64,000 nt of DNA, taken from positions 38,316,001 through 38,380,000 of the forward strand of contig NC_090346.1 in NCBI RefSeq assembly GCF_035084215.1. The letters run 5' to 3'. Shown here piece by piece: positions 4,236-64,000 of the stretch (the first letter of the stretch is position 1; every line of letters starts with the position of its first letter). The translations under genes were made by a program, and so were the position numbers. This DNA is from Heptranchias perlo. Taxonomy: Eukaryota. A model generated the notes under the pieces. It saw only the letters and a list, made by a program, of their open reading frames with translations. It did not search any database and had not been told where the DNA came from.

Positions 4236-4650
4236 AATCCATGCATACACAAGGATAACTGCACAGTATACAGGAGTGGGAAACCTTACATTCCCCATCT
4301 TGTAAATTTCCCAATTACTTGCAAAAATAGTGATTTAAAATAAAATACTGGGTAAATATAAAGATCACAGTTCTTCATTTCCTACAGATACAGGCATTGG
4401 GTCAGTCAGAGATCATAACCAAAAGGTAGAAAAAAATAGGATTACATAGAAACTGCAACAGGGTAACAGGCTGTTCAGCCCAACCAGTCTGTGTTGGTGT
4501 TTATCCTCCACAAGAGCAATCGCCCTAATCCAATGTGATTGAAATTTACCCCCAAAGAATTTGACTATCGCACTGAACCTGCTTTGTCAGAAGCTTTAAA
4601 AATGGGGTCCATTCACTCCAGCCACAGAACGGTGACTTCTTAGGCATGAT

Positions 4651-4933
4651 ACTCGACTCCACTTGAGCCCACTTCACTGCACTCGACCCCACTTGAGCCC
4701 ACTTCACTGCACTCGACCCCACTTGAGCCCACTTCACTGCACTCGACCCCACTTGAGCCCACTTCACTGCACTCGACCCCACTTGAGCCCACTTCACTGC
4801 ACTCGACCCCACTTGAGCCCACTTCGCTGCACTCGACCCCACTTGAGCCCACTTCGCTGCACTCGACCCCACTTGAGCCCACTTCGCTGCACTCGACCCC
4901 ACTTGAGCCCACTTCGCTGCACTCGACCCCACT
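4651..4933. repeat. 30-bp minisatellite ACTCGACCCCACTTGAGCCCACTTC(A/G)CTGC, 9 full copies plus a partial
   Basis: Direct head-to-tail repeats with no spacers. Confidence 0.97.
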
Positions 4934-5329
4934 GAAGATTGACAGTGGGCCAGCACATTCTAATTTCTCAGAGATTCGACTAGCTTCGAGACACTGTTTT
5001 CAGGCAATGGTTGTGGGGAGCTGTCTTTACAGGGACTGTATCAGCAGAGTCAGATGCAGAGTCGTGCCATCTGCTGTAAGGACACCTGCTGCTAACATGC
5101 ATCACAGGGCTGGCACAACCAGTGACAGAACTGGTCAGCTGTAGCTTCAAGCCTGCACATGGGCTTCCTTTGGCTGTGAAGGCTGCTCATGAGTTGAGAT
5201 GCCTTTTCAACCTTTGTACAGGCTTTCTAAATTTCAGAAATCTTGTCCCCCATTGTGGCAATCCCCTTTAATTATCTTCATTGTTTTAAATTTCACACAT
5301 GCAGTTTTTCTGCTCTTGCCCTGGATTTA

Positions 5330-11255: not shown

Positions 11256-12019
11256 TATGTATACTGTAGTCATATTGTCTTATATCAATGTTTGGGATTG
11301 TGCCGGGCAGAGATAAAATTCCAGAGCATCCCTAGTTCAACTCCAATAATTATTAATACAGTTAAATAAAGTAAAATTAGACTATTTATTAAGTCATTTA
11401 GATGTACATAAAGGTTGGGAGTTATAACACCAACAGATCTCATGTGGTGGTGCTCAGGTTACACCAATGCACACAAGAACAGAAACATTATAACATATTT
11501 CCCGTAATGTATTGCACTGCTGCTAAGAGGTTGCTATGCGTTATGTGGCCTGTGCCTTTAAGGCCATAAACTATTGGCCCGGATTTTCCTCTCAACGCGA
11601 ACAAATAATGCTCGTCGCTTGTTAGATTTGCACTTACCCATAAACTATCCATGGGCTTTTGGACTGCAACGTCCTGTAATCGGAAGCTGAGAAAAGTGCA
11701 GTGTCCTCCACAGGGCATCTGAGCAGTATCTGGAATCGCGCAAGAAAAAGTCTGTGAGAAAAGACATACCCACCAATTCAGCCAGGAGTCTTATAGAAAG
11801 CTGAATAGCCTTCAAATCCCCTATTAACTATTGAAAATTAGTTTAATTGTAAGTAACATTTTAAAAACCTTTTATAAAAAGGCAAAGTAATGAACTGTTC
11901 TTAAAAAACCATTGAAAGTTAATGCAGCATACGAGCTTCTGTGATGTAGCAGATGAACAAGTTTCACCATTGTAACATTTTTTGTTCTTCCTTCCCAGAG
12001 GTGCACAGCTGTCTGAGGA

Positions 12020-12705
12020 TGCACAGGCTGCAGAGGGCGGTGAGTCGGAGGATGCAGAGGGCGGTGAGTCGGATGATGCAGAGAGCGGTGAGTCGGGGGC
12101 CGTAGAGGGCGGTGAGTCGGGGGATGCAGAGGGCGGTGAGTCGGGGCTGCAGAGGGCAGTGAGTCAGGGGATGCAGAGGGCGGTGAGTCGGGGGCTGCAG
12201 AGGACGGTGAGTCGGGGGCTGCAGAGAGCGGTGAGTCGGAGGATGCAGAGAGCGGTGAGTAGGGGGCTGCAGAGGGCGGTGAGTCGGGGATGCAGAGTGA
12301 GGTGAGTCAGGGGATGCAGAGGGCAGTGAGTCGGGGGCTGCAGAGGGCAGTGAGTCGGGGGCCGCAGAGGGCGGTGAGTCGGGGGATGCAGAGTGTGGTG
12401 AGTCGGGGGATGCAGAGTGAGGTGAGTCAGGGGATGCAGAGGGCAGTGAGTCGGGGGCTGCAGAGGACGGCGAGTCACGGGCGGTGAGTCAGGGGCTGCA
12501 GAGGGCGGTGAGTCGGGGGCTGCAGAGGGCGGTGAGTCGGGGGCTGCAGAGGGCGGTGAGTCGGGGGCTGCAGAGGGCGGTGAGTCGGGGGCTGCAGAGG
12601 GCGGTGAGTCGGGGGCTGCAGAGGGCGGTGAGTCGGGGGCTGCAGAGGGCGGTGAGTCGGGGGCTGCAGAGGGCGGTGAGTCGGGGGCTGCAGAGGGCGG
12701 TGAAG
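12020..12705. repeat. GC-rich 24-bp minisatellite (GGGGCTGCAGAGGGCGGTGAGTCG) inside the Harbinger element
   Basis: Tandem units, homogeneous at about 12490-12700 and more diverged upstream. Confidence 0.95.
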
Positions 12706-13991
12706 TGGTAAATGAGTGGAAGGAGGAAGGGGGGGGCATTGGAAGGAAGAAGAGGGTGCGCACCCTGGGAGGGAGGGCAGGCAAAGTGACGTCTTCACGC
12801 CTACCCCCACGTGGTTGATGCGGGAGGACACTTGACCGTGATGAGCCTCACCTCATCCTCTCTCCAACTCTGAGCCCCTCTGGCTCTGTGCGAGACACAC
12901 ACACGACTCCCCTCACACAGGCAGCCGCCAAGCTGCTGCCACTGGGCCTGTGGGAGGAAACGCAATTGATGAGTCCGATCTGTCGGGGGTTGAGGAACCT
13001 TTGGGAGTTGGAGTAGATGCGTCCCACTCCCCTGTAAGACCCATGTTGATGACAACTGGGGAGGGGACTTCATTAAGTCGACAAGTGAGGTGAACGATGT
13101 TTGCTGAGAACGACAAGCACCTTGACTCTCTCATCTCCATTAGACAGGAGATCAATGGCGTTGGCCATAACATGTGACCAGCTGGCAAATATTGGGCATA
13201 ATGTAGGTCACCTTTGCCAGGTTCTTTTACATGTCGCTGATGTGACGGCTGTACTGCACCTGACGCCTGTGACACCCCACCTGCCTCCTCCCACTGCAGA
13301 CACAGTCCAGGCCCAAGAACCAGCAGCTCAGGCTCCCCCAGGCGTTACTTCTCCCAATGTCCGCTTGGAGCAGCACCTCCCCAGCTCCGAGCTCCCTGAT
13401 CACAGCCAACAGACAAGATACAGAGGTCATGCCCTTGGCACAAGAGGGGTCGGTTCACAGGGAGGGATGAGGACCAGGAGGAAATAGGGTGCCCCTCTTG
13501 TGCAGAGTACACCTCCTCTTGCTCAGACATTGTCATGGCGGCCCTCGGGCACGCCAGAGAGGGGGCAAATCAGTTAATGTTTTTGTTCTTTGTCTTAGTT
13601 CTTAGTCAGAAGTCATTTGTAACTGTTTGAAAATTTTTATGACTATCAACCACGTTTACAACTGTTTCCAAAGTAGAAAATGACTAAATTAACTCAATTT
13701 TTAGTCAACTCAAAACTCAGTTTTGCACTAAGCACCTCAATGTTTAATTAAGTTTTGCAATAACTACCTATTTCTTAAAAGTTTGCACCAAGTATTTGCT
13801 GCTGCAATAAAAGTTCACTGTTTCACTTTCAATCTTGCCTGTCCTTTCGTGTACTTCCCTGGGTGGGGGGGGAAGGGGAGGCATTTTGCCATTTTCACCA
13901 CTGTCCAAATGCATGAGCCACCAGCTGGTCTCTCGCCACCCTGCCCTCTGCAGCCGTGGCTTCCTCGGGGCGGGGGTCACGAACCATGACC

Positions 13992-14898: not shown

Positions 14899-15427
14899 TC
14901 TCTGGGGTGGGTAATCGTTCCTCCTGGCGCTGGACTCTTCTTTGTTGTTCCCTGAGTCGGCCTTCCACTCTGTACAGTAAATACATAAACAGTAGGATCT
15001 CGAGTGGAAAAAGCATTTTTTTTACCCCTCTTTTCTTTTTCCACACAGGCCTCTTTAAGCACTTCCAGGACTCTTGACGTCACATAAATTTGAAAAAAAT
15101 TGAAAAATTCTGACACACGGCTCTCACAGACTTTTTGTGCAAATCTCTGATTGGTAGAAAGCTCCCTCCGGCTGACTCCTGGCTTCATTAAATATGTGTG
15201 AAATTTAAATGGTGGCAAGACAGGCTCCTCACGTTAGTTCAGACAAGCTCTAACTTTTTCTGGAGAGTTTGGTACGTTCTTACGGCGTCAGTGCAGCAAC
15301 TTCAGGCTCTTCCATTCATTTGAATGGAGGGCCAGCTGGTGAGATGTCCCTCCCACGGAGCTTACGGTGGAGCAGGTACAGCAACTTCTGGATTTCCAGT
15401 TTAACTGCACATGTGCGATCACTGGAC

Positions 15428-15902
15428 TATGAGTACTGGTGAATGTAAGTATTGAGGGAATGTGAGTATTTAGTGAATGTGAGTACTGGGTGAATGAGAG
15501 TATTGGGGGAATGTGAGTATTTAGTGAATGTGAGTACTGGGTGAATGAGAGTATTGAGGGAATGTGAGTATTGGGGTGAATGTGAGTATTTAGTGAATGT
15601 GAGTATTTAGTGAATGTGAGTACTGGGTGAATGTGAGTATTTAGTGAATGTGAGTATTTAGTGAATGTGAGTACTGAGTGAATGTGAGTATTTAGTGAAT
15701 GTGAGTATTGAGGGAATGTGAGTATTTAGTGAATGTGAGTACTGAGTGAATGTGAGTATTTAGTGAATGTGAGTACTGAGTGAATGTGAGTATTTAGTGA
15801 ATGTGAGTACTGAGTGAATGTGAGTATTTAGTGAATGTGAGTACTGAGTGAATGTGAGTATTTAGTGAATGTGAGTATTTAGTGAATGTGAGTACTGAGT
15901 GA
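15428..15902. repeat. 17-bp minisatellite GTGAATGTGAGTA(TTTA/CTGA)
   Basis: Tandem units of two main variants; a short remnant recurs near 16680-16705. Confidence 0.95.
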
Positions 15903-16312
15903 CTATCATAATAGGTACAGCACAGGAGGAGGCCACTTGGCCCATTATGCCTGTGCCAGATCTTTGAAAGAGCTATCCAATTATTCCCATTCCCCGGCTC
16001 TTTCCCCATTGCCTGGTAAATTTTTTCCATTCAAGTGTTTATCCATTTTCCTTCTGAAAGTTACTATTGAATCTGCTTCCACCACCCTTTCAGGCAGTGC
16101 ATTCCAGATCATTACAACTCACTGCATAAAAAAATGTTTCCTCATGTCGCCTCTGGCTCTTTTGCCAATCACCTTAAGTCTGTGTCCTCTGCTTACTGAC
16201 CCTTCTGCCACTGGAAAGAGTTTCTCCTTATTTACTCTATCAAAACTGTTCATGATTTTGAACACTTCTATCAACCCCAGCTTCTCCACATATCTGAAGT
16301 CCATCATCCCTT
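15903..16312 (-). mobile_element. CR1-type LINE 3' fragment
   Basis: ORF 16119-16307 LIEVFKIMNSFDRVNKEKLFP...RGHRLK. Confidence 0.85.
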
Positions 16313-24661: not shown

Positions 24662-25460
24662 CATGTATGTGTACATCCGTGTATGCGCGTGTGTGATCTG
24701 TGCGCATGTGTGCATATGCGTGCACATGTGTGTGTGGGTGTGTTTGTGTGTGCATGTGTGTGTGCATGTATGTGAGTATGCATCTGTGCGCATGTGTGCA
24801 TATGCGTGCACATGTGTGTGTGTGTGTTTGTGTGTGCATGTGTATGTGTGCATGCGCAGGTGTAATGTCTGTTCCAGAATAAACTGAAAATGATGGTCAC
24901 TGGGATAAGAATAGTCAGAGCAGGCAATGGCTGCCTGTTATGGGAATAAACCCTGCCCAAAAACTGACCATGAAATGACATTGGGCACAAATTGCTCGGT
25001 GCAGCAAACCAACAGTGCTTGCCGCTCCATAGATTTATACTAACCCACTAACTTACCACGGTCTTTTCTTCGGGTACTTCCTCGAATAGGAAGCGGAGAA
25101 GAGCCCAGCGTCAGTTCAAATGAAGTTAGGACCCTGGGAGAAAGGAACAACCTCTCCCCTCGGCCAATCAGATCACAGTATTTTTGACAAGCTGCGTTCA
25201 CTGGGCCCGATTTTACCAGGGGTGCGGCTTGGCAGCGGGTGGTCAGGCGGGCTCGAGGAAAACGCGCCGGCCAAATTGAGTGCGTTGCGCACGCGATCGC
25301 GGGATGATTGATGTAATTAGCCGGCAGTTACGGGTTCCGCGCTTCTCAGCTGCGTGCCGGCGGCCTGGGCATGCGCATTGACGTCTGAGCGATGGTTGCG
25401 CTCTATTTAAAGGGGCAGTCCACCAAAGCCCCTCCAGCCACAAACTACACTCCATCAAGG

Positions 25461-44959: not shown

Positions 44960-47742
44960 AAATTTACCTACATTTTGGAGCCCCTCAATCTGACAAGATC
45001 AGGATGGGGGGGGGGGGGCAATGGATCTATTCCGCAGTACATCGGAGGAGGAGGAAAATGAAGATGGGGAACCCATCGCCAGAGCAACCGCGCACATTGC
45101 TGCCCGTGATGCCAGGGATTACTTCTCATTATGTCACATCTCATTATGAGGTTGCACCCATCACAGGACATATAGCCATGCACCAGCACTTTTTGATATT
45201 CGCACTTCAGTTGGTCCTATTAGACAGTCAAATGGGTTGTCACCTGGTGATTCACCACTCACAAGTGAGCACGAGCAGACACTGGTGGCAGGGGCAGCTG
45301 TGAAGAGTCCGCGTCGGGGGGAGCAATCCTCTCCAAGCTCTGCTCAGCTGGACATAGATGCTGAACCCCAGGGGCCATTGTCGAGAAGGAGAATGATAGA
45401 GCTGACAAGTTCTCATAATGAGATGTGCAAATTGAAGACTTTGAAATACTCAGGCCGCCTGGAACAACCACTGCCACCAACCTCCCATTTGCACAAAACA
45501 GTCCTTCAAACACGCCTACACCCATTGCACACGCACCCAATGGGTGACATCGTGTGTTGGCATTCATGATGAAGCACATGAAAGGTCAAATTCACAAAAG
45601 AGACTCAATAATGGCCAAGATGTAGCAGTGGTGGTGATAATGATTACATTTAATATGCCATAACAAAGAAAATATAAATTAACAACATGACAGCTTGTCA
45701 AACACCCTTGTACATACCCTTCGTAAATTACAATTGCTTAACCGTTCTCTTTCTACCGATTCTACGTGGTGCATCCCCTGTGGCTTCAGCAGAGGTATTG
45801 ACAGGTTGCTCAGATCCCTGCCCTGACTGCTGAGGTGCTCTCGGCCTATGACCTCTGGGTTTTGGAGCCTTTGAGGGTCCCGCCAAAGACTGCTCCACTT
45901 GCATCTGTGCAGGGGCAGACTCGGCCATCAGGAGAGGAAGCAGCATTGCGGGTACTGGTTGAGGAGGGGGCAATGGGTAAGAAGTGGGAGCGCTTTGAGT
46001 GGAGTCTCCACTTCCATTTTCCCTTTCGCCGTCATCCCTCTCTCGGGCCAGCGCAACATCATTCCCGCCACTCTGCTGGCCAGCAGGTTGGTCAGCAGAT
46101 GTGCCACGTCGCAAGACCACGGCTAAAGTATCTGCCTGCCTGTTTAAGGTGGCAGACATGTTGGCATCCAGAGTCCACACGGCCATTGTCATGGCCTGCA
46201 TGGACTCATTTGATAGCCATGCTTGAAGCTCAATGGAGGCTACTGTTCTCTCCATCGTACACACTCTCGCACTTACCTGCACCACCAATCCACTTGTAAT
46301 GGAGTTGGACTCCTCCATCCTCTCCGCTATTGTGGAAACTGTGCTTGCCATTTTTTCACTACCTTGCAAAGTTGCTGCTGCACCTCTATCATTCTCCTTC
46401 TCGACAATGGCCCCTGGGGTTCAGCATCTATGTCCAGCTGAGCAGAGCTTGGAGAGGATTGCTCCCCCCGACGTGGACTCTTCACAGCTGCCCCTGCCAC
46501 CAGTGTCTGCTCGTGCTCACTTGTGAGTGGTGAATCACCAGGTGACAACCCATTTGACTGTCTAATAGGACCAACTGAAGTGCGAATATCAAAAAGTGCT
46601 GGTGCATGGCTATATGTCCTGTGATGGGTGCACCCTCAGAAGGAATGAGCTCCTCTGAGGAATCGCTCTCTTCCATTTCTGCTGATTCCTCGTGAAGGTG
46701 TGAAGGTCCTGGAAGATAACAGAAAGCGATATTAATGATTCATCGCAAAAGTGATAAAATCAATTCATCCTGTGTGTGAAAGATGTTAAAGTTCTGTCGC
46801 CAGCCATCTACAGGTTGCCAGTCTCTCCATCTCCGATGGATAGGCATTCGACGGTCTGACTTATTTCCATGGCCTCCTCCTCCATTTCTGTCACCTCTAC
46901 TATGCGGTGGGCCACCTCCAGTTCTGCTCCTCTTCCGTGCGTTTTGTGCTCTCTTCTCCTACAAGGGGAGAAAGAACAGACCTGCGAGTGGCTGAAGGTG
47001 ATGTATCCACCTTATGAATGCATTCCTTTGGTTAATGCTGGTCATGAAAGAGATGCATCAGAGGGTGACTATCAGACAGATATATCACATTGCATCAGGT
47101 TTGGGGTGAGTGGCAGTGGTGAGTGAATAAATGAGCAGTTGAGCAAGTGCATAGAAAGTGAAGGATGGTTACTGCTGCTGACACTTAAGTGGGTGTGAGG
47201 AGTTATGTGATGGGGTTTGCGTGCTGAACAACACAGGATGTGGGTGAATCAGCAACTGTACCCACTTTTCCTGACCTGGTTAGGACATTAAAATGCTTCC
47301 TGCATTGACGCAAGACCGTGTTCCTGCTGCTCACCTCTTCTCCCACCTCCAGCCATGCATTTTTCGTTATAGAGCCAGGTTTCTTCCTGCCATCCATTGG
47401 AAACATTACCTCCCTCCTGGCTCTCAATACAGCCAGCAGTACATACAGGAAGGCATCATTAAATCTAGGGGCGGCCTTTGCTTTTCTGGATTCCATTTCT
47501 CCTTTCTCCAACAAAATCCATTCTTGGGACTGGCCCTGTAAAATAGCGGGCTTTAAATCGCATCATCCGGGTGCGCAATATGCCCGCTGCACAACTTGGA
47601 GACACGAAACCCGGAAGCATAAATAATTGCCTGCAATCAAGTTGCGATCGCAGATTTAAATGCGCACATTTGACTTGTGGGTTCCCCACGTGCAAATCCG
47701 TCCACCCGCTGAGTTCCCAGCTCCAAGTTAAAATCTAGGCCT
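44960..47742 (-). mobile_element. Harbinger internal-deletion derivative (Myb gene kept; transposase N- and C-termini fused)
   Basis: TIR-like TTAAAATCTAGGCC at ~47729-47741; + strand MGG...STSEEEENEDGEPIARATAHIAARDARD at ~45004-45120 joins the transposase start to its end; left boundary uncertain. Confidence 0.75.
45728..47496 (-). pseudogene. Harbinger Myb/SANT accessory gene, degraded
   Basis: MESRKAKAAPRFNDAFLYVLL...AWLEVGEEV...QCRKHFNVLTRSGK; exon 3 EHEQTLVAGAAV...APRRIGRKRTVKQL with frameshifts. Confidence 0.85.
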
Positions 47743-50824: not shown

Positions 50825-52577
50825 ACTATTTTTTGGTACCACCATTTAAGGAGACATTTCTGTACAGGATTTCTGACCATCCTGTCGCGTGATGTATTAT
50901 AGATGAGGACGCTCATCAGAAGTTTAGTCTCTTTCCTGCCGCATAACAAAGTTTAAGTCTGGAGAGTACAGAAGGAATGGAGGAGAGTGAAGCTGGAGGT
51001 CTCCCCCACGCTCAAGGTCAGTATCATTCGCTTCTCTTGTTTTTTCTCCACTCTCTCTCTTGCACTCACTCATAAATACACTCCAGCATACCACAATTAC
51101 ACACAGTATATAGCCATACAAACACAGATTGAGCAAATCTCTTAAAACCAAAATTCAAACAAATGTTCTTCTTCTGTTTCTATAGTTAACCCGAAGACTC
51201 AGCCCAACCTGCCATATAAATGGAATAAGCTGGCATCTCACATCACTGTGTCAAATAATTCTCCCATCACAAGCATCAGTACAGCTAAATCCATCCTGGG
51301 ATTTCTGATAGTCAGTTTGAGGATGGCGCGCTGAGTGAGACACAGAAAACAAGAGTGCAGGAGCTTGTGGTGGTGGCAGTGGAGGAGCAGGAACCTATGG
51401 GACAGAAAAGCAGTTCACTTCCTTCTTCAGCTGCAGAGCCCTGGGATTCACAGCTCACTGGACCTGCATTGAAAAGAAGGTAGCTATCTGATCAAAAACA
51501 TTTCATGCAGTTATATTAAGAGTGTGCAAGATCTGGCGATGACTGTAGTGAAGTCCAGTACTCTCATCTATGCACTTGTATATGATCACTACAGTCTATC
51601 CAGGTGCAACTACAGTGAAGCCCTCCTGTGACAGCGGTCTTTTGCACAATGTGAGTATTTCTCATGAATGCTCACTGCTGCTATGAAGGCTTTGGGCTCC
51701 AATCTCCAAGGGAGCTCTTGTATGGCTTCATATTTCAGGGCTTAATAGTGACCAGCAGCAGCTCCCTTGCAGATCATTTGATAGACTGAGGGAATCTCCA
51801 GCTGCAAGGCACAGCTGGTGTAGGCACGCATGAGGTTGCTGTTAGGGCGATGCCACATCGGCTCATCCAGCCCTCCCTCCACTCAAATGATAGCGGGAGG
51901 TGCCAGATAGTGGGCAGGACAAGCCAGCCACCACATGATGCTTGAGCAAGTATAGAGCTGAATTGTCTATATGTGGGCAGGACAGATGATGCATTGGGCA
52001 GATCAGGCATTTAAGTGAAGGTCTTCTCTATTGGATCTTGGAGTCTGACTCTTGCTGCCTGTGAAGATGTTTCAGCAGGGATATCTTCCGGATCATTGTC
52101 AGGGTCCTGCTTTGCCCTTGGCTGTGGGTGACTTCCTTCTCTTCCAGTTTATTGGTTAGGCCTCTCTGGGTGGCAAAGTTGTATAGCTTGATGCAAATTA
52201 CTATAATCCTGGAGACCCTGGCAAGGCTGTACTTTAATACACCTTCTGATCTGTCCAGCATTTGAAGAATTGCTTTGAGATGCCTATGGTACACTGATTA
52301 GAGAGCCTGATGGCTGCATGAGCCCTGTATCATTGCTTAGCTGGTGTAGAAGGTAGCCCTGGCCAATTGGAAGCCATCCTTCCAGTTCTCCATTTCCTTT
52401 AAATAGCCCAGGAATCGAAGATTAAAATTGAGACATCGTGATTGCTGTTTGAGAAGCACATGATCCTGTGTTGTTAATCTTTGATGACCTGATGTGGAGA
52501 TGCCGGTGATGGACTGGGGTTGACAATTGTAAACAATTTTACAACACCAAGTTATAGTCCAGCAATTTTATTTTAAA

Positions 52578-52616
52578 TTCACAAGCTTTCGGAGGCTTCC
52601 TCCTTCGTCAGGTGAA
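52578..52616 (-). ncRNA. Minimal type I hammerhead ribozyme motif
   Basis: Mirror image of 52626-52664. Confidence 0.75.
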
Positions 52617-52625
52617 CGAACATCG

Positions 52626-52664
52626 TTCACCTGACGAAGGAGGAAGCCTCCGAAAGCTTGTGAA
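52626..52664 (+). ncRNA. Minimal type I hammerhead ribozyme motif
   Basis: TTCAC-CTGACGA-A-GGAGG-AAG-CCTCC-GAAA-GC-TT-GTGAA: CUGANGA/GAAA core, 5-bp stems I and II, palindromic AAGCTT stem III. Confidence 0.75.
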
Positions 52665-53344
52665 TTTAAAATAAAATTGCTGGACTATAACTTGGTGTTG
52701 TAAAATTGTTTACAATTTGATGACCTGGACACTGATGAAATGGATGCTCTGCTTATTTATCAAGGCCATGGGATTTTGAACAGGCTCAGATGGCAACACG
52801 GTTGCAGTCAATAATATCCTAGACGCTGGGTAATCCTGCAATGAGCAAATATTGCAGTGTCTTCACACTCTTCTGGTTTTCCATGGGAAAAGTGGTGAAA
52901 ATGTTTGGTTTGCTTGATGCATTTGTGCATCCTGGATTCACTGATATTGCTGATGTCCACTGCCGTAGCTTGGAATGAACCCGAGGCATAAAAGTTCACG
53001 ACTGCGCTGATCTTCACTGCTACTAGCATTGCTGCCCCTGTGGTGAAAGTTTTCTATCGATCAGATTCCAACAGATGGCACAACTTCATCACTGCCTCCC
53101 TGGTGATGTCAAGCCTGCAAAGGCAGTCGTACTAGGACATTCCCAGATTGGGCTCGGACATAAAGGTGCATAAACGCAGGTGCAAACAGTTTACTTCTGG
53201 TGCAAGTGCACTTCTCTCATATTCCTGCTTCCATCTCTTCCTCCCCCAGAAACCTTAAATAGAGCAGAACACCCATAGGAGTTCCCTTATTGAAAATTTT
53301 GATTTTAGCAATCAAAAATCTGGCAAATAAAAATGCAGCAAAGC

Positions 53345-53510
53345 ACCCAGCAATCACAAAACCAACCATCACAAATCCAGCAACCACTAATCTAACCATC
53401 GTAAATCCAACCATCACCAATCAAAACCATCTCTAATCCAACCATCATTAATCCAACTATCAGTAATCTAACCATCTATAATCCAATCATTACTAATCAA
53501 AACCATCAGG
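53345..53510. repeat. Degenerate ~15-bp tandem repeat (AATCCAACCATCACT-like)
   Basis: About ten imperfect units just inside a TIR-like GGAATCCAGCCC at 53509-53520. Confidence 0.7.
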
Positions 53511-54989
53511 AATCCAGCCCTGGCTTGCCCATTCCATTTCGTTATGAATTATGGCACTGGCCGGGAAATCTACCTTCCTGAAAGTACTTACTGCATCATA
53601 TGATTAAGCTCCATTCTAGACGAGAGTTTGAGAGTTCTCTAATGCTGCTGTTAATACTTTTAACCCTGGCATAATGACACTGTTGTTGGGCGAGTGACCT
53701 GACATTAAAATGTTGCCTCAACTGCACCTTCAGGCTTCTGCCTGTCTGTAGTGATAGCATTCCTGTTTCCTTCGAAACTCAGAGGCATCATTGTGCATAT
53801 GCAGTTATATATTGTGTCTGTGCATTTCCAGTTATGTACTGGGTCTGTGCATTCGCAGTTGTATCTGCATCCGCAGTTGAATTGTCGATCTCAGAAGATG
53901 TGGAAGCACGCAGTGCTGATAATGTTGGCATCAGATAGATGAGATAACACCAGCATGAAACACTTGGCTGTCAGCTTCTGATTTACTCGCTACACTGCCC
54001 TATATGCCAGCACAGTCCACTCATTCACACAGCATCGCCCAATTCACTTTCTCCATATGTTTTGTAAGTAAGACTGACAGAGCCTGCGGCCTTTTCCTAA
54101 AGTGTGTGGGGGTCATTATTATGCTGGAAGACAGTAGAAAGGTCTAGGGAATTACTCTTGACACGTAAGTAAGATATTGTGGCAAAATTATTGACTGTAC
54201 ATAAATGAATCAAACTCATTTCAGATGTACCTGTCATATAATTAATACATTTACATTCCCTGGATAAATGGGGCAGATAGTTGAGATTGTCTGCCCACAT
54301 TAATTAATGCAAAATTTGGAGTAGTGACTTCAAAAACAAGCACACGATTAGAGCAACGTGACAGCTCCATAATTAAAGTGTCATTTAAATTGAGCAAACT
54401 TGTTGTCAGGAAGTACGCAAAGTAAAATTAAAATGACTTTGGAATAGCAAAGAAACACACTATACAGTAAAACTAGCAGCTTTACTGCATTGCAAAACTC
54501 CTGTCAGAAAAACTTCACAGGGTCAAAACAGGGGTTTCCAATAGCACGGGCAATAACTAGACCCCCTCAATGTTTCCAGTGAAATTCCTGAATGGCTTTA
54601 AAGATGCGATCATAAACCTACAGCAGATTCAAGGACTACAATTAAATTGGATAATGTGTTTCCATTTTGTTGGAATTACTGAACAGCAGTGGAGAAGGAC
54701 AAGATCCATTTAGGAGTTCATATAGAACACCAACAGCATCTCCATAAGGTGGCACCAATGAACACCCTTTAAGGAATGCCTTCATTGTAGTTTAGTTAGT
54801 GCGGGTTGATGTAATTGTTTTGGGCCAATTTATTGTGCACATAGGCGGAGAGGATTATAAGTGCAGTGGGTGTATGTGGCACTTAGCTGAAAGATTGCTG
54901 TATGAGGGCCTATCATATGGCTCTTGCTGCCTGAAACAGCCTTTGGCTGTGGGTGGACTTTCTCCTCCCTCTCATCCAGTATGAGACTT

Positions 54990-56300
54990 CTCTGGATAGC
55001 AATTTGTGAAACGTGTGGCAGACTACAATAATCTTGGAGGTCCTGGAAGAGCTATCTTGGAAGACAGTCTTGATCTATTCAGGGATCTGAAGCGCTACTT
55101 CAAGATGCCTATAGTATGTTCGATAATGATCCTATTTACTGCATGGGCCTCGTTGCTTCTTCACTCTTTTGCTGTTTGTGGATATCAGTAGTAACCTGAG
55201 CAAGGGCTGCAGAAGGTAGCATCGATCTCCTAGAAGCCATTCTTGTTGCCTTCTTCTTCAAACAGCCCAGGTAATAGCGTCAAGACTCCTCTCTGGAAAG
55301 TCGAGCACTGACCTGCATGATTCTGCGTTGCTGAACAATGACCATCAATAGAGTGAGAACTCCTTGCAAGTTATTAAGGCCTTGGGGTTATTTGCACGAA
55401 TCTAGATGGCCGCATGGATGCCATCAACAACACCCTGAACAATGGAGAATCCTGCTGTGGAAAAAATTGCAGGATCCTCTAATTCTGTTCCCAGGTTTGC
55501 AATGAAGATATAAATTTGATCGACTTGGCAAACTACGCAACAGTGACCTACACAAATCATTGGTTGGACCACAGTTAGATTATTATGTCCAGTTTTAGGC
55601 ACTTTACTTTAGAAAGGATGCCAAGGTCGTGGAAATGGTGCAGAAGAGCTTCACTAGGATGATACTAGGGATGTGAGGCTTTAATTATGAGAAAATACTA
55701 GAGAAACCGCGGCTCTTTTCATTACAACGAAGAAGATTAAGAGGTGTTCAGAATTATGAGCGTTTTGATAAATTAATATGGGGAAAAGTGGTTAGTGAGT
55801 TGGTAACTGTAGGGTGTAAATTTAAATTGTCACCAAAGAATGAAGGGAGAGGTTAGGAGAATTTTTTTTATGTATGCAGAGAATTGTTAGGACATGAAAT
55901 TCCCTATCAGAAGCAGAAGTCATAATTGATTTTAAAAGGTGAGTGGATAAAATTGCAAGGATGTGAGGAAAGGGTCTGATTGGATAGCTCTTTCAAATAC
56001 GATGGGCTGAATAGCCTCCTTCTGTGCTATAAAATGCTATGATTCTATGATAGAGTGTGTGGGTTGACTGATGTTGCTGATGTCCTCTATTGAAGCAAGG
56101 AATGAGCCTGATGTATAAAAGCTCAGGGCTGTGGTAACTTATGCTGTCACTGGTAGTGCCATCACTGTGGTGGAGGTTGCCTGCAACTCAGTTTTGAGCG
56201 GACATCACAGATCTGTGACAGCCACCCTGCTGAATCAGAGCCGGTGAAGATAATTTTCATTAGACATTCCTGAGTAAGCATGCCTGGGTCTCTGGACACT
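54990..56300 (-). pseudogene. Highly decayed HARBI1-like transposase split by a CR1 insertion
   Basis: Hand translation of the minus strand: ALPVTA*VTTALSFYTSGSF (~56090-56160), AGFSIVQGVVDGIHAAI (55402-55460), WLLGDRCYLLQP and RIIIEHTIGILK*RFRSL (~55080-55240). Confidence 0.8.
55545..56051 (+). mobile_element. Old CR1-type LINE 3' fragment
   Basis: cattggttggaccacagttagattattatgtccagtttt...ctatgattctatga. Confidence 0.8.
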
Positions 56301-56454
56301 GCTGTATGAGTAAGAGCAGGTAAGAGCAGGTTAGCGCAGTCTGGTTTTGACTTCCATTCCTCCTTTCAACCCTTCAAATAACACAAAAAGAGAGGAACCA
56401 TTGAACAATTAAGGTATCACATGCCTAACGTTAAGAGTCCACCTTTAAATATAC

Positions 56455-57175
56455 TTTTTTCTTTGGAGCAGAGGAGGCTGAGAGGTGATTTAATTGAGGT
56501 ATATAAAATTATGAGGGGCCTAGATAGAGTGGACAGGAAGGAACTATTTCCCTTAGCAGAAAGGTCAATATCCAGGGGGCATAGATTTAAAGTGATTGAT
56601 AGAAGGATTAGAAGGGAGCTGGAGAAAATTTTTAAAGATTTAGCATAATTTTCCTGCTTTTGTACTCTTATGCCTCTATTTATAAAGCCCAGGATCCCAT
56701 ATGCTTTTTTAACAGCCTTCTCAACTTGTTCTGCCACCTTCAAAGATTTGTGTGCGTACACCTCCCAGGTCTCTCTATTCCTGCACCCCCTTTAAAATTG
56801 TACCATTTAGTTTATGTTGCCTCTCCCCAGTCTTCCTGCTAAAATGTATCACTTCACACTTCTCTACATTAAATTTCATCTGTCATATGTCTGCCCATTT
56901 CACCAGTCTGTCTATTTCCTCCTGATGTCTGTTACAATCCTCCTCATTGTTTACTACATTTCCGAGTTTTGTGTCATCTGCAAACTTTGAAATTATGCCC
57001 TGTGTACCCAAGTCCAGGTCATTAATATATATCAAAAAGAGCAGCGGCCCTAATACTGACCCCTGGGGAACACCTTGTAAACTCCCTTCAAGTCTGAAAA
57101 ACAACCGTTCACTACTACTCTCTGCATCTGTCCCTTAGCCAATTTCTTATCCATACTGCCACTGTTCCTTTAATT
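56455..57175. mobile_element. Rearranged CR1: + strand 3' piece (56455-56630) joined tail-to-tail to a - strand RT piece (56640-57175)
   Basis: ORFs 56421-56648 (+) and 56883-57104 (-, [10 protein letters not shown]...FADD). Confidence 0.85.
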
Positions 57176-58114
57176 CCTAATTCTATAATTTAGGAATACT
57201 TTTAAATGATAATCTCAATCAAGCAATTGTATTGTAACCCAGTCAGGGGCTGAGCAAGGCTACAGACAGTGAGTTGAAAGTCCTGGAGGAATCTCCACAG
57301 AATGACAAAAGCTAGCAATAAGATGGAAACCTAATCAATCATGTATGGTCCTCACTGCACCAAGAAGCTGTTCCAGTGTGCTGTATACTAAAAAAAAATG
57401 ATGAATTGACAACAGGCTATTGTAAACTTGGTGCCAGCTTTAAATCCTAATACTCATGGCTAATGTTGAAGAACAGTAAATAACATGTAATAGTTGATGT
57501 GGAGAAGCTTTATACATATGAGAGGTAAAAATTAGTCAGATGAATTCTAGAATAATATATCTACTGTAATAATACACTGCAATAGGTCTCTTTTATATAA
57601 AATAGGGGATAACCATGCAGTGCACATATATGCTTCTCAAAGCAATCAGAGCACAAAGTACAGGATATCCGTGCTTGGCCCACCAGTCATTCCAAACCTT
57701 GTTTGGCTAATCATCTTTGGGGAGATGAAGCTTATCATCAGAGGAACCAGAGAATGTCATTAACAAGTGATCGGATCATGATGCGGGTATGTTTCTGATG
57801 AGAGTGATGGCTTAGACTGCATAATTGTGTGAGAACTGCTGAATACTGCGAAGATTTGTGTCCTTAGGCAGTCTCATTCCAATTCATCCTACATTACAAT
57901 CAGTCTGATACATTTCGTTCATTTCTGTTTCAAACCACCTAGTCCTTTTCTTTTACTAATTCTCCTCACCTTTAGCTTTCCTCCTCTCCTGAGGCACTGA
58001 TGGGGTACAGCTCCATGAGTTGTCAGCAGGCCTCCAGTAACCTGCAAATTGTAATTCTTCACCTGTGAGCCTACACCAGTGATTTTTAAACTTTTATGTG
58101 TGGGGGAACTGTCC

Positions 58115-58545
58115 TTGCTGACCTACATTGGCTCTTGTGGGGTCCCCCAATGCCTCCAATTTAAAATTCCGGTCGTCGTAGTTAAATCCCTTGATAGCCT
58201 CGTCCCTCCCTATTTCTGTAACCTTCTCCAGCCCTTCAATCCAACCCCTGAACTCTCAGTTCCTCTGACTGACATTTTGTGCATCCCCTTCCCTTTGCCC
58301 CAACATTGGCAGCCATGCCTTCAGCCCTCTAAGACCCACGCTCTGGAATTATCCCCTAAACCCCTTTGCCTCTCCTCCTTTAAGACCCTCCTTAAAACCC
58401 ACCTCTTTAAGCAAGCTGTTAGTCACCCCTGCTAACAGCTCCTTCTTTGTCTTGGCATCCATTTTTGTCTGATTGTGCTCTGTGAGGTGCCTTGGGATGT
58501 TTTTGTACATTACAGGTGGTATATAAATGCAAGTTGTTGTTGTTA
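58115..58545 (+). mobile_element. L2-type LINE 3' end
   Basis: FKTLLKTHLFKQA; tail atataaatgcaagttgttgttgtt. Confidence 0.8.
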
Positions 58546-58891
58546 AAGGGGCAACCACAACTCTCAGTTACTCTGAGGAATATATCTAAAGTTGATTTTT
58601 TTTTAAAAAGTAATATTTATCTTTCTTTCCTGTGTTAATATGTTTGTGATTTTCCTTTCCACGAGCACGTAACCTGACTCCATACACATGCAAAAAGCAG
58701 TTTATGTTATAACCCTGACAACCATCTTCAAGCGAAATACCCTGTGAAACGGTCAATTTATATTGAAACTGTTAACATTTAAAGCTATACATGCCTCAGC
58801 TCTGACTCGAGGATGCTTAAGTAATAATGATTTGAATATCAACCAGTAATTTTCCATGGGTGAATGCTAATTATGGCTTTCCTTTTATCTG

Positions 58892-59003
58892 ATCGCATGC
58901 TCACATTACTGTCAGTCCTTTCTCGCCCAACACTGTGTAAATTTTGAATCGCATGCTCACATTACTGTCAGTCCTTTCTCGCCCAACACTGTGTAAATTT
59001 TGA
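58892..59003. repeat. Perfect 56-bp tandem duplication
   Basis: atcgcatgctcacattactgtcagtcctttctcgcccaacactgtgtaaattttga occurs twice. Confidence 0.95.
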
Positions 59004-59474
59004 ATTGAGATATGTAGAGAGTATTAGATACTCACCAGCGATTTGCACCAGAAGTCTAATCAAGGGCTTCAAATCAGGTTATGAACTATAATGTGAACTC
59101 CTGGCTCCACAAAGTCTCTGGCCCTCGGCAGCTATTTTCCCCTTGTTTAAAACAAGTTCAGATGGACCCAGCTGGATACAAATGAATACTGTTTATTGAA
59201 AAACAAAAAAGTAGGTTATTTAATCAGACACAATACTGGCAACATGCCATGCTGCTATACATTGCCTGGAGATCTAAACCAGTAAATTTGAATCGAGTAA
59301 TCTGGTTCACATGCAGTACATCACAAATTACTTTATTACGTGGACTACATCTTATCCGGTTTAGAAATAAAAGATCACAAGAACGAAGGATGTGGAGATG
59401 CCGGTGATGGACTGGGGTTGACAATTGTAAACAATTTTACAACACCAAGTTATAGTCCAACGATTTTATTTGAA

Positions 59475-59515
59475 ATTTACAAGCTTTCGGAGGTTTCCTC
59501 CTTCCTCAGGTAAAT
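59475..59515 (-). ncRNA. Minimal type I hammerhead ribozyme motif
   Basis: Reverse complement ATTTAC-CTGAGGA-A-GGAGG-AAA-CCTCC-GAAA-GC-TT-GTAAAT. Confidence 0.75.
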
Positions 59516-59780
59516 GTCAGGAACTCCTCGAAGCCTACGCATTTATAAATCACAGAACAATACATGGTGATTACAGATAGTCTTTGCAACTGCCCGTTGC
59601 CAAGGCAATCACAGTGTTCAGACAGAGAGGTGTTACCTGCAGAGCCCCCGAATATACAGTCAACAAAAAAAACACAAACAGAAAAAAAACAGAGAGAGAG
59701 GCAGAAACATCCAGAAGGCAGAGAAAGCCAGCAAATGACCTGTTATATTAAAAACAGATAGCTTTTGTTCACTGGTGGGG

Positions 59781-60620
59781 TTACGTGTAGCGTGACATGA
59801 ACCCAAGATCCCGGTTGAGGCCGTCCTCATGGGTGCGGAACTTGGCTATCAATTTCTGCTCGACGATTTTGCGTTGTCGTGTGTCTCGAAGGCCGCCTTG
59901 GAGTACGCTTACCCGAAGGTCGGTGGCTGAATGTCCCTGACTGCTGAAGTGTTCCCCGACTGGGAGGGAACCCTCCTGTCTGGCGATTGTTGCGCGGTGT
60001 CTGTTCATCTGTTGTCGCAGCGTCTGCATGGTCTCGCCAATGTACCATGCTCTGGGGCATCCTTTCCTGCAACGTATGAGGTAGACAACGTTGGCCGAGT
60101 CACAGGAGTATGAACCATGCACCTGGTGGGTGGTGTCCTCTCGTGTGATGGTGGTATCTGTGTCGATGATCTGGCATGTCTTGCAGAGGTTACCGTGGCA
60201 GGGTTGTGTAGTGTCGTGGATGCTGTTCTCCTGAAAGCTGGGTAATTTGCTGCGAACGATAGTCTGTTTGAGGTTGGGTGGCTGTTTAAAGGCGAGTAGT
60301 GGAGGTGTGGGGATGGCCATAGCGAGTTGTTCGTCGTCATTGATGACATGTTGAAGGCTGCGGAGAACATGGCGTAGTTTCTCCGCTCCAGGGAAGTACT
60401 GGACGACGAAGGGTACTCTGTTGGTTGCGTCCCGTGTTAGTCTTCTGAGGAGGTCTATGCGATTTTTCGCTGTGGCCCGTCGGAACTGTCGATCGATGAG
60501 TCGAGCGTCATATCCCGTTCTTACTAGGGCGTCTTTCAACGTCTGTAGGTGTCCATCGCGTTCCTCCTCGTCTGAGCAGACCCTGTGTATTCACAGGGCC
60601 TGTCCATAGGGGATGGCCTC
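59781..60620 (-). pseudogene. Inverted duplicate of the Penelope ORF 3' part (thumb, Cys linker, GIY-YIG)
   Basis: Near-identical reverse complement of 61721-62560. Confidence 0.92.
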
Positions 60621-60970
60621 AGTTTGACATGTATGCCCAAGCTGTCAGGAAATGCGTCAATGCCAGATTCATCGGGCGCACTCAGAAGACAGTCCAGAAT
60701 GTCACCCGAGCACAACGCAACGCCATCAACGCTCTCAAGACCAACCGCAACATCGTCATCAAACTAGCGGACAAAGGAGGAGCCATCGTCATACAGAACA
60801 GAACGGATTATTGCAAATAAGCATACCGACAACTGGACAACCAGGAACACTACAGACGGTTACCCGCAGATCCGACCAAAGAACACACCCACCAGCTCAA
60901 CAAACTGATCAAGACCTTCGATCCAGTCCTTCAAAGCATCCTACGCACTCTCATCCCACGTACTCCCCGC

Positions 60971-62560
60971 GTGGGAGACTTCTACTGCCTCCCAAAGATA
61001 CACAAAGCCAACACACCCGGACGTCCTATCGTATCAGGCAACGGAACCCTGTGTGAGAGCCTCTCTGGATACGTCGAGGGCATCCTGAAACCCATCATAC
61101 AGGGAACCCCCAGCTTCTGTCACGACACTACAGACTTCCTACAAAAACTCAGTACCCACGGACCAGTTGAACCAGGAACACTTCTCACCACGATGGACGT
61201 TTCGGCACTCTACACCAGTATCCCCCACGATGACGGCATCACTGCGACAGCATCAATACTCAACACCAACAACAGCCAATCTCCAGACCGCATCGTACAA
61301 CTCATCCGCTTCATCCTGGATCACAATGTCTTCACCTTCGATAACCAGTTCTTTACCCAAACACACGGAACAGCCATGGGGACCAAATTTGCACCCCAAT
61401 ACGCCAACATTTTCATGCACAAGTTCGAGCAGGACTTCTTCACTGCACAGGACCTCCAACCAACGCTATACACCAGATACATCGACGACATTTTCTTTCT
61501 ATGGACCCACGGCGAAGAATCACTAAAGAGACTACACGATAACATCAACAAGTTCCATCCCACCATCAAGCTCACCATGGACTACTCCTCAGAATCAGTT
61601 TCTTTCTTGAACACACGAATCTCCATCAAAGACAGGCACCTCAGCACCTCACTCTACCGCAAGCCCACGGACAACTTCACGATGCTCCACTTTTCCAGCT
61701 TCCACCCTAACCACGTCAAAGAGGCCATCCCCTATGGACAGGCCCTGCGAATACACAGGGTCTGCTCAGACGAGGAGGAACGCGATGGACACCTACAGAC
61801 GCTGAAAGACGCCCTAGTAAGAACGGGATATGACGCTCGACTCATCGATCGACAGTTCCAACGGGCCACAGCGAAAAATCGCGTAGACCTCCTCAGAAGA
61901 CTAACACGGGACGCAACCAACAGAGTACCCTTCATCGTCCAGTACTTCCCCGGAGCGGAGAAACTACGTCATGTTCTCCGCAGCCTTCAACATGTCATCA
62001 ATGACGAAGAACACCTCGCTATGGCCATCCCCACACCTCCACTACTCGCCTTTAAACAGCCACCCAACCTCAAACAGACTATTGTTCGCAGCAAATTACC
62101 CAGCTTTCAGGAGAACAGCATCCACGACACCACACAACCCTGCCACGGTAACCTCTGCAAGACATGCCAGATCATCGACACAGATACCACCATCACACGA
62201 GAGGACACCACCCACCAGGTGCATGGTTCATACTCCTGTGACTCGGCCAACGTTGTCTACCTCATACGTTGCAGGAAAGGATGCCCCAGAGCATGGTACA
62301 TTGGCGAGACCATGCAGACGCTGCGACAACGGATGAACGGACACCGCGCAACAATCGCCAGACAGGAGGGTTCCCTCCCAGTCGGGGAACACTTCAGCAG
62401 TCAGGGACATTCAGCCACCGACCTTCGGGTAAGCGTACTCCAAGGCGGCCTTCGAGACACACAACAACGCAAAATCGTCGAGCAGAAATTGATAGCCAAG
62501 TTCCGCACCCATGAGGACGGCCTCAACCGGGATCTTGGGTTCATGTCACGCTACACGTAA
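60971..62560 (+). CDS. Penelope-like reverse transcriptase-GIY-YIG endonuclease ORF (5'-truncated; frame continues upstream to ~60621 across one TAA at 60818-60820)
   Basis: ADKGGAIV, FYCLPKIHK..PGRPIVS, MDVSALYTSIP, GTAMG, RYIDDIF, PCHGNLCKTC linker, VVYLIRC...YIGET, GLNRD. Confidence 0.93.
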   Translation: MGDFYCLPKIHKANTPGRPIVSGNGTLCESLSGYVEGILKPIIQGTPSFCHDTTDFLQKLSTHGPVEPGTLLTTMDVSALYTSIPHDDGITATASILNTNNSQSPDRIVQLIRFILDHNVFTFDNQFFTQTHGTAMGTKFAPQYANIFMHKFEQDFFTAQDLQPTLYTRYIDDIFFLWTHGEESLKRLHDNINKFHPTIKLTMDYSSESVSFLNTRISIKDRHLSTSLYRKPTDNFTMLHFSSFHPNHVKEAIPYGQALRIHRVCSDEEERDGHLQTLKDALVRTGYDARLIDRQFQRATAKNRVDLLRRLTRDATNRVPFIVQYFPGAEKLRHVLRSLQHVINDEEHLAMAIPTPPLLAFKQPPNLKQTIVRSKLPSFQENSIHDTTQPCHGNLCKTCQIIDTDTTITREDTTHQVHGSYSCDSANVVYLIRCRKGCPRAWYIGETMQTLRQRMNGHRATIARQEGSLPVGEHFSSQGHSATDLRVSVLQGGLRDTQQRKIVEQKLIAKFRTHEDGLNRDLGFMSRYT

Positions 62561-62828
62561 CCCCACCAGCGAACAAAAGCTATCTGTTTTTAATGTAACG
62601 GGTCATTTGCTGGCTTTCTCTGCCTTCCGGATGTTTCTGCCTCTCCCTCTCTGTTTTTTTTTCTGTTTGTTTTTTTTTTGTTGACTGTATATTCGGGGGC
62701 TCTGCAGGTAACACCTCTCTGTCTGAACACTGTGATTGCCTTGGCAACGGGCAGTTGCAAAGACTATCTGTAATCACCATGTATTATTCTGTGATTTATA
62801 AATGCGTAGGCTTCGAGGAGTTCCTGAC

Positions 62829-62869
62829 ATTTACCTGAGGAAGGAGGAAGCCTCCGAAAGCTTGTAAAT
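62829..62869 (+). ncRNA. Minimal type I hammerhead ribozyme motif
   Basis: ATTTAC-CTGAGGA-A-GGAGG-AAG-CCTCC-GAAA-GC-TT-GTAAAT in the sense pLTR. Confidence 0.78.
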
Positions 62870-63130
62870 TTCAAATAAAATCGTTGGACTATAACTTGGT
62901 GTTGTAAAATTGTTTACAAGAAAGAAGGACTTTAGAAAGAGAGGGAGAGGGAGAAAGAAATAGAAATTGGACCTTGTAGCATCCGTTTGATGGGCGTAAA
63001 ACGGTAGCAACAATGCACATTTTTGGGGATCAACATCAACAACAACAACAACTTGCATTTATATAGCACCTTTAAGATATGTAAGGAATCTTACAACACC
63101 AGGTTATAGTCCAACAATTTTATTTTAAAA

Positions 63131-63167
63131 TCACAAGCTTTCGGAGATTATCCCCTTCGTCAGGTGA
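63131..63167 (-). ncRNA. Minimal type I hammerhead ribozyme motif
   Basis: Mirror image of 63599-63635. Confidence 0.72.
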
Positions 63168-63598
63168 ATGAGTGGAAGATTCTCAAATCGCATATCTTAT
63201 ATTAGGCTGGGACAGCATCACACCAATCAAAAGGTGTCGTTGTTGTTCAAACAGGCCAGTCATGGAGAACAGCACGTCCCAGTACACTGGATATACATTG
63301 TGTCAATTACACAGACAGAAAGAAAGAGACCCAAATGGCAGAGAGAGAGAGAGAATATTAAAACACATAACTTTTTTTCCCAAAAAAAGTTATGTGTTTT
63401 AATATTCTCTCTCTCTCTCTCTCTCTGCCATTTGGGTCTCTTTCTTTCTGTCTGTGTAATTGACACAATGTATATCCAGTGTACTGGGACGTGCTGTTCT
63501 CCATGACTGGCCTGTTTGAACAACAACGACACCTTTTGATTGGTGTGATGCTGTCCCAGCCTAATATAAGATATGCGATTTGAGAATCTTCCACTCAT

Positions 63599-63635
63599 TC
63601 ACCTGACGAAGGGGATAATCTCCGAAAGCTTGTGA
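63599..63635 (+). ncRNA. Minimal type I hammerhead ribozyme motif
   Basis: TCAC-CTGACGA-A-GGGGA-TAA-TCTCC-GAAA-GC-TT-GTGA; stem II differs from the other copies but still pairs. Confidence 0.72.
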
Positions 63636-64000
63636 TTTTAAAATAAAATTGTTTACTATAACCTGGTGTTGTAAGATTCCTTACATTTGTCCACCCCAGT
63701 CTATCACCGGCATCTCCACACCTTTAACATAGTACAACGTCCCAAGGCGCTTCACAGGAGCGTATTCAAATAAAAATTGACACCGAGCCACATAAGGAGG
63801 TATTAGGACAGAGGCAGGTTTAAAGGAGCATCTTAATGGAGGAGAGAGAGATAGAGAGGCGGAGAGGTTTAGGGGGGGAATTCCAGAGCTTAGGGCCCAG
63901 GCAGCTGAAGGCACAGCCGCCAATGGTGGAGCGATTAAAATCAGGGATGAGCAAGAGGCAAGAATTGGAGGAGCGCAGAGATCTTGGAGGGTTGTAGGGC

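Follow-up and report, generated by a model that had tools for sequence, protein, structure and literature searches.

Endonuclease-containing (EN+) Penelope-like elements (PLEs) are described as typically consisting of an open reading frame (ORF), an inverted pseudo-long terminal repeat (pLTR), a tail and a target-site duplication (TSD), with head-to-head as the commonest arrangement of copies (PMC3846280). The inverted layout is likewise called typical or most frequent elsewhere (PMC8557442), and in Drosophila virilis the inverted Penelope form is the most frequent one (PMC2377424). The origin of tandem and inverted PLE insertions is still called undefined (PMC8557442). We analysed three such insertions, E1 (52492-52717), E2 (59391-62919) and E3 (63076-63718), of a putatively Neptune-type PLE in 64,000 nucleotides of the shark Heptranchias perlo (NC_090346.1, positions 38,316,001 to 38,380,000 of the forward strand; hereafter the window, from whose first letter all coordinates are counted). 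Each pair of inverted copies was probably built anew, both nicked target strands priming reverse transcription on one template. We see the lasting value of the locus in this testable mechanism for a known, unexplained layout.

Published EN+ PLE insertions resemble E1-E3 in having inverted copies, a 30-40 nt tail at one end, a single TSD of ~8-14 bp and junction palindromes (PMC3846280; PMC8557442; PMC2377424). E1-E3 differ from them in the shark host and in having no upstream direct pLTR (0 of 3), and E1 and E3 differ further in being short stubs (0.2 and 0.6 kb) that lack an ORF and have 3-nt loops. The Poseidon element of Anolis carolinensis (PAc) shares with E1-E3 an AC-rich start region preceded by a hammerhead, and a tail delimited by two positions. 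In vitro, two start sites of the PAc reverse transcriptase (RT) bound the tail, both target strands are nicked and extended, and the enzyme is predicted to be a dimer (PMC11167929). Unlike E1-E3, PAc belongs to the Poseidon clade and its ORF begins within the hammerhead, and the available portion of that paper makes no link between inverted copies and the paired start sites. No statement of double priming for PLE inversions was found in the literature searched, outside whose coverage lay most subscription papers and the older PLE reviews.

Metazoan PLEs carry minimal type I hammerheads whose core motif, additional nucleotide preceding G10.1, short helix I and palindromic helix III are also predicted from sequence for E1-E3; in Schistosoma, dual hammerheads lie 100-700 bp apart on opposite strands (PMC4209133, the available portion of which does not mention the shark family). 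Small interfering RNAs (siRNAs) are reported to match Penelope inverted regions (PMC3681739). The layout of E1-E3, opposite-strand hammerhead pairs and siRNAs from Penelope inverted repeats are all already known. A new class of ribozyme-bearing hairpin mini-elements, as proposed in a preliminary description of this locus, is unsupported. Non-LTR retrozymes are short, non-coding, hammerhead-bearing and pLTR-derived like E1 and E3; however, they are direct tandems with at least two same-strand hammerheads and release circles, whereas the copies in E1-E3 are inverted and would give each transcript a single sense core (PMC7229834; bioRxiv 10.64898/2026.07.22.740005). We rejected a retrozyme identity because the hammerhead pairs of E1-E3 lie on opposite strands and form no direct tandem.

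Layout of the three insertions

E1, E2 and E3 all consist of two 5'-truncated copies placed head-to-head with the tail on one arm, and a single TSD encloses each arm pair. The features are given below with their strand in the window. Depths and joints, here and throughout, come from read contigs, including those of a DNA run that is possibly the window's own sample.

52480..52491, left TSD of E1, 12 bp, identical to 52716-52727
52492..52526, minus strand, tail of E1, 35 nt, 66% A+C in element sense
52527..52619, minus strand, tailed arm of E1 (3' part of the pLTR), hammerhead core at 52583-52611
52620..52622, plus strand, loop of E1, 3 nt, assigned to the tail-less arm; equals upstream family letters (loose ends, 97 contigs at 59511)
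52623..52717, plus strand, tail-less arm of E1, hammerhead core at 52631-52659; final 2 nt common to the TSD
52716..52727, right TSD of E1
59377..59390, left TSD of E2, 14 bp, 1 mismatch to the right copy
59391..59424, minus strand, tail of E2, 34 nt
59425..60631, minus strand, tailed arm of E2, 1.2 kb, with the 3' part of the ORF (~59784-60620), 3' untranslated region (UTR)/pLTR and hammerhead core at 59481-59509
60623..60631, centre of E2, inner arm ends with 8/9-nt microhomology (chance 0.004, lenient register); a 2-nt insertion lies ~11 nt off
60629..62560, plus strand, RT and GIY-YIG ORF of E2, 5'-truncated, in-frame stop at 60818-60820
62561..62919, plus strand, 3' UTR/pLTR of the tail-less arm of E2, hammerhead core at 62835-62863; final 4 nt common to the TSD
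62916..62929, right TSD of E2
63067..63079, left TSD of E3, 9 bp exact (63067-75 / 63719-27) or 13 bp with 1 mismatch
63080..63378, minus strand, tail-less arm of E3, spanning the complete 3' UTR (sister subfamily), hammerhead core at 63135-63163
63379..63381, minus strand, loop of E3, 3 nt; first 1-2 letters extend the family sequence of the tail-less arm (joint 63380->59772, depth 1584)
63382..63686, plus strand, tailed arm of E3, hammerhead core at 63603-63631
63687..63718, plus strand, tail of E3, 32 nt
63719..63731, right TSD of E3

The boundaries, the TSDs of 12, 14 and 9 bp and the tail of ~33 nt given in the preliminary description agree with these features, the tails measuring 35, 34 and 32 nt. 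Its two small non-coding, near-perfect hairpins with 3-nt loops were also recovered, as E1 (arms of 95 nt, 100% complementary) and E3 (arms of ~300 nt). The fold-back architecture proposed for all three holds for the inverted arms, the one-sided tail and the TSD, but not for the centre of E2, which is asymmetric and has no turn: a 1.2-kb tailed arm faces a 2.3-kb tail-less arm (60623-62919), ORF sequence is present in both, and 1.08 kb of ORF remains unpaired as a spacer. Nor does the assignment to two subfamilies seem to hold, as the last ~130 nt look like three variants with pairwise identities of 94% (E1-E2), 87% (E1-E3) and 85% (E2-E3).

Two further details concern the same insertions. The arms of E3, otherwise near-identical, differ by three units in a (GA)n run (63340-63353 versus 63407-63426), which we attribute to slippage after insertion. 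E2 and E3 lie ~150 bp apart, separated by 62920-63075, with their tails in opposite orientation.

Probable priming from both target strands

Target-template microhomology was found at all six outer junctions, with 1+2 nt in E1, 2+4 nt in E2 and 2+1 nt in E3, altogether 12 nt where 4-5 would be expected (P 0.005-0.02). In all three insertions the tail-less end lies no more than 2 nt from one position, at the foot of a small stem-loop retained via compensatory changes, and the tails have 62-68% A+C. Both arms carry the same letter at 17 of the 24 variable sites listed, and alleles rare in the family occur in both arms at 62080 in E2 (0.1% of depth) and at 63263 (0.8%) and 63179 (3.4%) in E3, indicating that the arms derive from one template. 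Moreover, the tail-less arm extends further upstream than the tailed arm in every case, by 3 nt in E1, 1080 nt in E2 and 1-3 nt in E3. The microhomology, the fixed tail-less end with the AC-rich tail, the single template and the longer tail-less arm together favour priming from both target strands.

We could envisage the following course. A staggered target cut of 12-14 nt would provide two primers, of which one would start at the tail end and the other 32-35 nt further in on the same template. The centre could then be closed by joining the two cDNA 3' ends, or the tail-less cDNA could snap back on itself and then encounter the tailed one. Both options are compatible with the data. The central 8/9-nt microhomology of E2 fits either, and the centre of E3, with inner arm ends no more than 3 nt apart in position at an A-run that closely follows the stop codon, is better explained by snap-back.

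In E1 the element sequence stops 3-6 nt upstream of hammerhead helix I. The family depth drops to 0.16x immediately before the hammerhead, and the 97 contigs that exit there agree over ~10 letters before becoming mixed (agreement 0.49). E1 is likely a run-off product, formed where element RNAs commonly have their 5' end, a few nucleotides before the hammerhead; the internal promoter in the pLTR of Drosophila Penelope agrees with this reading (PMC2377424). We rejected two other readings. The hammerhead cut does not coincide with the turn: in E1 the cut is predicted after 52659, 37-39 nt downstream of the turn, and E2 and E3 turn far upstream. An extra cap-derived letter in E1 was discarded because the loop equals family letters; the third loop letter of E3 is ambiguous.

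Another route, the plain fold-back, would involve a single priming event, after which the tailed first-strand cDNA would snap back. It would produce near-perfect hairpins with 3-nt loops such as E1 and E3, and the rare alleles common to the arms would follow from it. However, a copy of the tailed cDNA could not hold sequence that the tailed arm lacks, and the tail-less arm has such sequence in all three insertions (1080 nt in E2), unless the centre of E2 was lost later. We therefore regard plain fold-back as quite unlikely.

Self-priming on antisense RNA was proposed as the best reading of junction palindromes (PMC3846280): the antisense RNA folds at its 3' end, RT copies it to a hairpin, and the endonuclease trims the tail off one arm. 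The head-to-head symmetry, the 3-nt loops and the longer template arm would all be accounted for, and the centre of E2 can form a 9-nt pairing that includes one G-T wobble. What this route leaves unexplained is the target-template microhomology at both outer ends; it also demands removal of the tail from the template arm every time, and the tail boundaries correspond to sense-strand RT start sites in vitro (PMC11167929). On balance it seems unlikely, though less so than plain fold-back.

Read contigs bear on whether hairpins, once formed, are copied as units. We examined 27 joint rows (15 of 1,076 and 12 of 307), of which five are head-to-head junctions at other loci, all in different places, with unequal arms and at 5-16x single-copy depth. 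The preliminary description had named identical turn points as the sign of transposition as units and unique ones as the sign of formation at each insertion. The three window centres and the five read junctions all differ, in line with the latter, but two of the junctions recur at ~15-16x depth, so that the check gave a mixed outcome. A non-autonomous family of hairpins, MITE-like (MITE, miniature inverted-repeat transposable element) or retrozyme-like, would explain these two junctions, which lie within the hammerhead, and two others found at 7-10x in that DNA run. Recurrent junctions would equally arise from an RNA 5' end shared by many copies together with 3-nt microhomology, though, and the recurrent ones are tiny against a family depth of ~10^4-fold. 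In addition, a hairpin transcript has one sense start region and therefore would not regenerate a tailed and a tail-less end with fresh microhomology at both. Together with the distinct turn points, this makes unit copying very unlikely.

Several points weigh against priming from both target strands. The 1-nt microhomology at the tail-less end of E3 requires the 13-bp TSD; with the shorter TSD there are 3 untemplated letters, and the count falls to five of six junctions. The element studied in vitro is a Poseidon and not a Neptune, and it primed without homology to the cut DNA, against 1-4 nt in E1-E3 (PMC11167929). Common alleles could also result from arm-to-arm conversion, and the asymmetry of E2 could reflect a later central deletion in a longer palindrome. 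Two independent cDNAs would rarely give arm ends as nearly equal as those of E3, 200 nt from the common stop. The RNA 5' end is deduced from DNA alone, the two junctions recurring at ~15-16x single-copy depth would result from unit copying as well, and the dissected loci number three.

In L1 twin priming, a single RNA likewise serves as template for primers from the two target strands, and microhomology joins the cDNAs; the second primer anneals at varying internal positions, and there is little overlap between the arms. In the double priming proposed for E1-E3, by contrast, the second site would be fixed 32-35 nt from the first, and therefore the arms would overlap almost fully and form a palindrome. 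If double priming is true, the 2024 in vitro result becomes linked to a genomic layout, and the idea can be tested by junction counts in one shark genome and with the existing in vitro system. More tentatively, the inverted-plus-tail layout of PLEs might be the footprint of an ordered two-ended reaction, in which the inner site is primed from one target strand, run-off or snap-back follows, and the product is captured by a second cDNA that starts at the tail end from the other strand. We find this possible but doubtful; if it is true, the tail, the palindrome and the TSD would arise in one step, and the centres of stubs would map the 5' end of the element RNA in genomes without RNA data.

As a separate observation, the letter after the inferred nick on the strand priming the tail-less arm (52716, 62916 and 63079) is G at all three sites (GAT, GAT and GTA), a number too small to establish a preference.

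Authenticity, frequency and identity of the family

The centres of E1, E2 and E3 are not spanned by any read contig among the contigs and joints listed, which would be expected if the palindromes were assembly or long-read fold-back artefacts. The single-orientation contig alignment appears blind to turns, its listing having one opposite-strand joint and none of the window's own centres, and its silence on the centres was not used. A 162-nt contig at single-copy depth matches 62897-63058 exactly; only 23 nt of it lie inside E2, below the 31-nt bridging rule. On the other side, the left and right flanks of the insertions differ and carry the TSDs, the tail is one-sided, and head-to-head junctions occur in read contigs. 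The arms of E2 are 22 substitutions apart, of which 19 are transitions and 13 of CpG type, with two more differences in the unaligned overhang; such a spectrum points to ageing and not to read error. E3 breaks a high-copy host repeat resembling a short interspersed element (SINE):

~63038..63900, plus strand, SINE-like high-copy host repeat broken by E3, recognised from empty-site joints, loose ends and other copies in the window

The uninterrupted form of this repeat is seen in 10 of 15 joints listed (of 1,076). The artefact that the preliminary description had itself named as a refutation is, on this evidence, extremely improbable.

Inversion is frequent in the family, as the five other junctions show. 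That fold-back is the default product of integration, as previously suggested, goes further than the data: it holds for three of three insertions in the window, but the default is unproven in view of head-to-tail joints, apparent simple copies and depth. One of the 27 joint rows is a head-to-tail joint (63112->59389, depth 1657), and in the single-orientation listing 4 of 14 distinct joints return to the tail start, that is head-to-tail, while 1 of 14 switches strand. Two of the 32 contigs listed (of 25,788) consist of the tail and 77-103 nt followed by unrelated sequence, apparently simple one-armed copies, although one of these two is only 84% alike and its second arm may have escaped. The summed depth inside the tail-less end is, as a crude figure, 0.75-1.3x that of the tail, against 2x if all insertions were two-armed.

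The protein encoded by the E2 ORF matches Pfam RVT_1 (E 2e-10) and contains the motifs DKG and YIDD, a CX4CxxC linker at 62141 and a GIY-YIG core (VVY..YIG) with two Cys between GIY and YIG; the two His of the CCHH motif were spotted by eye. Its top match among 1,262 is a shark RT protein with 93% identity. The ORF begins near residue 238, full-length relatives having ~880 aa. Among 120 homologues examined, 87 of the 89 that have the GIY-YIG core also have the CX4CxxC linker. A CX2-5CxxC linker upstream of GIY-YIG is present in Neptune and Nematis and absent from Penelope and Poseidon (PMC8557442), and by this criterion E2 is placed with Neptune/Nematis. E1-E3 are thus members of a high-copy EN+ PLE of putative Neptune type, the clade placement resting on the linker motif. 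The summed contig depth of the family is of the order of 10^4x that of the single-copy flank and indicates a very abundant family, as a depth and not a copy number; such ratios are sums over overlapping contigs and a weak measure.

MITEs have the symmetric terminal inverted repeats of a DNA-transposon family and a short TSD of fixed length. The ends of E1-E3 are asymmetric owing to the one-sided tail, the TSDs have 12-14 bp and the arms are PLE 3' ends, and a MITE identity was accordingly rejected. The Penelope-like origin put forward earlier is confirmed by the RT and GIY-YIG ORF, the pLTR, the tail and the TSD. Outside the shark, the exact tail pattern had no match in public metagenome contigs, a protein search of metagenome contigs gave one distant locus only (L001, 26% identity), and viral contigs contained no sister loci.

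Hammerhead cores and genomic surroundings

The hammerhead core pattern occurs six times in the 64 kb against 0.02 expected (100 shuffles), always within E1-E3 and once in each arm. All pLTR copies in the window are therefore two-armed (three of three). The cores belong to a minimal type I hammerhead in which the pairing of helices I and II is retained across the variants. Rfam at gathering thresholds gave no match in the 64 kb, minimal hammerheads falling below such thresholds.

The preliminary description presented the paired ribozymes as a functional feature, a view that our predictions do not support. Because the paired cores lie on opposite strands, a transcript holds a single sense core that follows its own perfect complement; whichever flank transcription enters from, the antisense arm comes first. 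In the whole hairpins of E1 and E3, helices I and II have a predicted probability of 0.0 for either strand, whereas an isolated E1 arm reaches 0.95-1.0 and the 3' parts of the E2 and E3 arms ~0.3-0.4. As DNA strands both hairpins are highly stable, with -116 and -369 kcal/mol; single-arm folding z-scores are weak (-2.3 to +0.2) and were not counted as evidence. Minimal hammerheads of this type are described as inactive as monomers (PMC4209133). The hammerhead pairs are predicted to be passengers with their cores sequestered in the double-stranded RNA of E1 and E3, and the small hairpins, their hammerheads locked, would be dead ends.

Stubs such as E1 and E3 are liable to be mis-annotated as MITEs or as microRNA-like hairpins. 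Read-through of many such stubs would yield long double-stranded RNA, a consequence already known for Drosophila Penelope. A second run, putatively RNA from the sample that gave the DNA run, mirrors the changes of the DNA run and is uninformative about expression and A-to-I editing.

Host genes were sought in 64 of the 226 long ORFs of the window. The only one among them is a rhodopsin-family G-protein-coupled receptor on the plus strand with two exons (30934-31371 and 33747-34592; Pfam 7tm_1 positions 1-84 and 83-260). An intronic location of E1-E3 was rejected, since this closest host-gene match in the ORFs scanned ends at ~34.6 kb, 18 kb off.

The window contains other repeats. A PIF/Harbinger-like element (25389-28876) has a DDE_Tnp_4 ORF of 414 aa on the minus strand (27635-28876) facing a Myb/SANT ORF on the plus strand (25389-25997), and further copies bearing Myb/SANT lie at 664-2488 and 45490-47150. 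A 264-bp segment of a Myb/SANT-type (Harbinger-like) repeat has an inverted copy nearby with 98% identity (45141-45404 / 46381-46644, 976 bp apart). The copy is flanked by a 16-bp inverted repeat (~45135-45150 and ~45412-45427) containing an 11-bp palindrome, and has a short direct duplication at its left edge and neither hammerhead nor PLE tail. Minisatellites are found at 4549-5141 (10/30-bp units), 11952-12784 (24 bp), 15371-15970 (17 bp) and 53323-53504 (15 bp).

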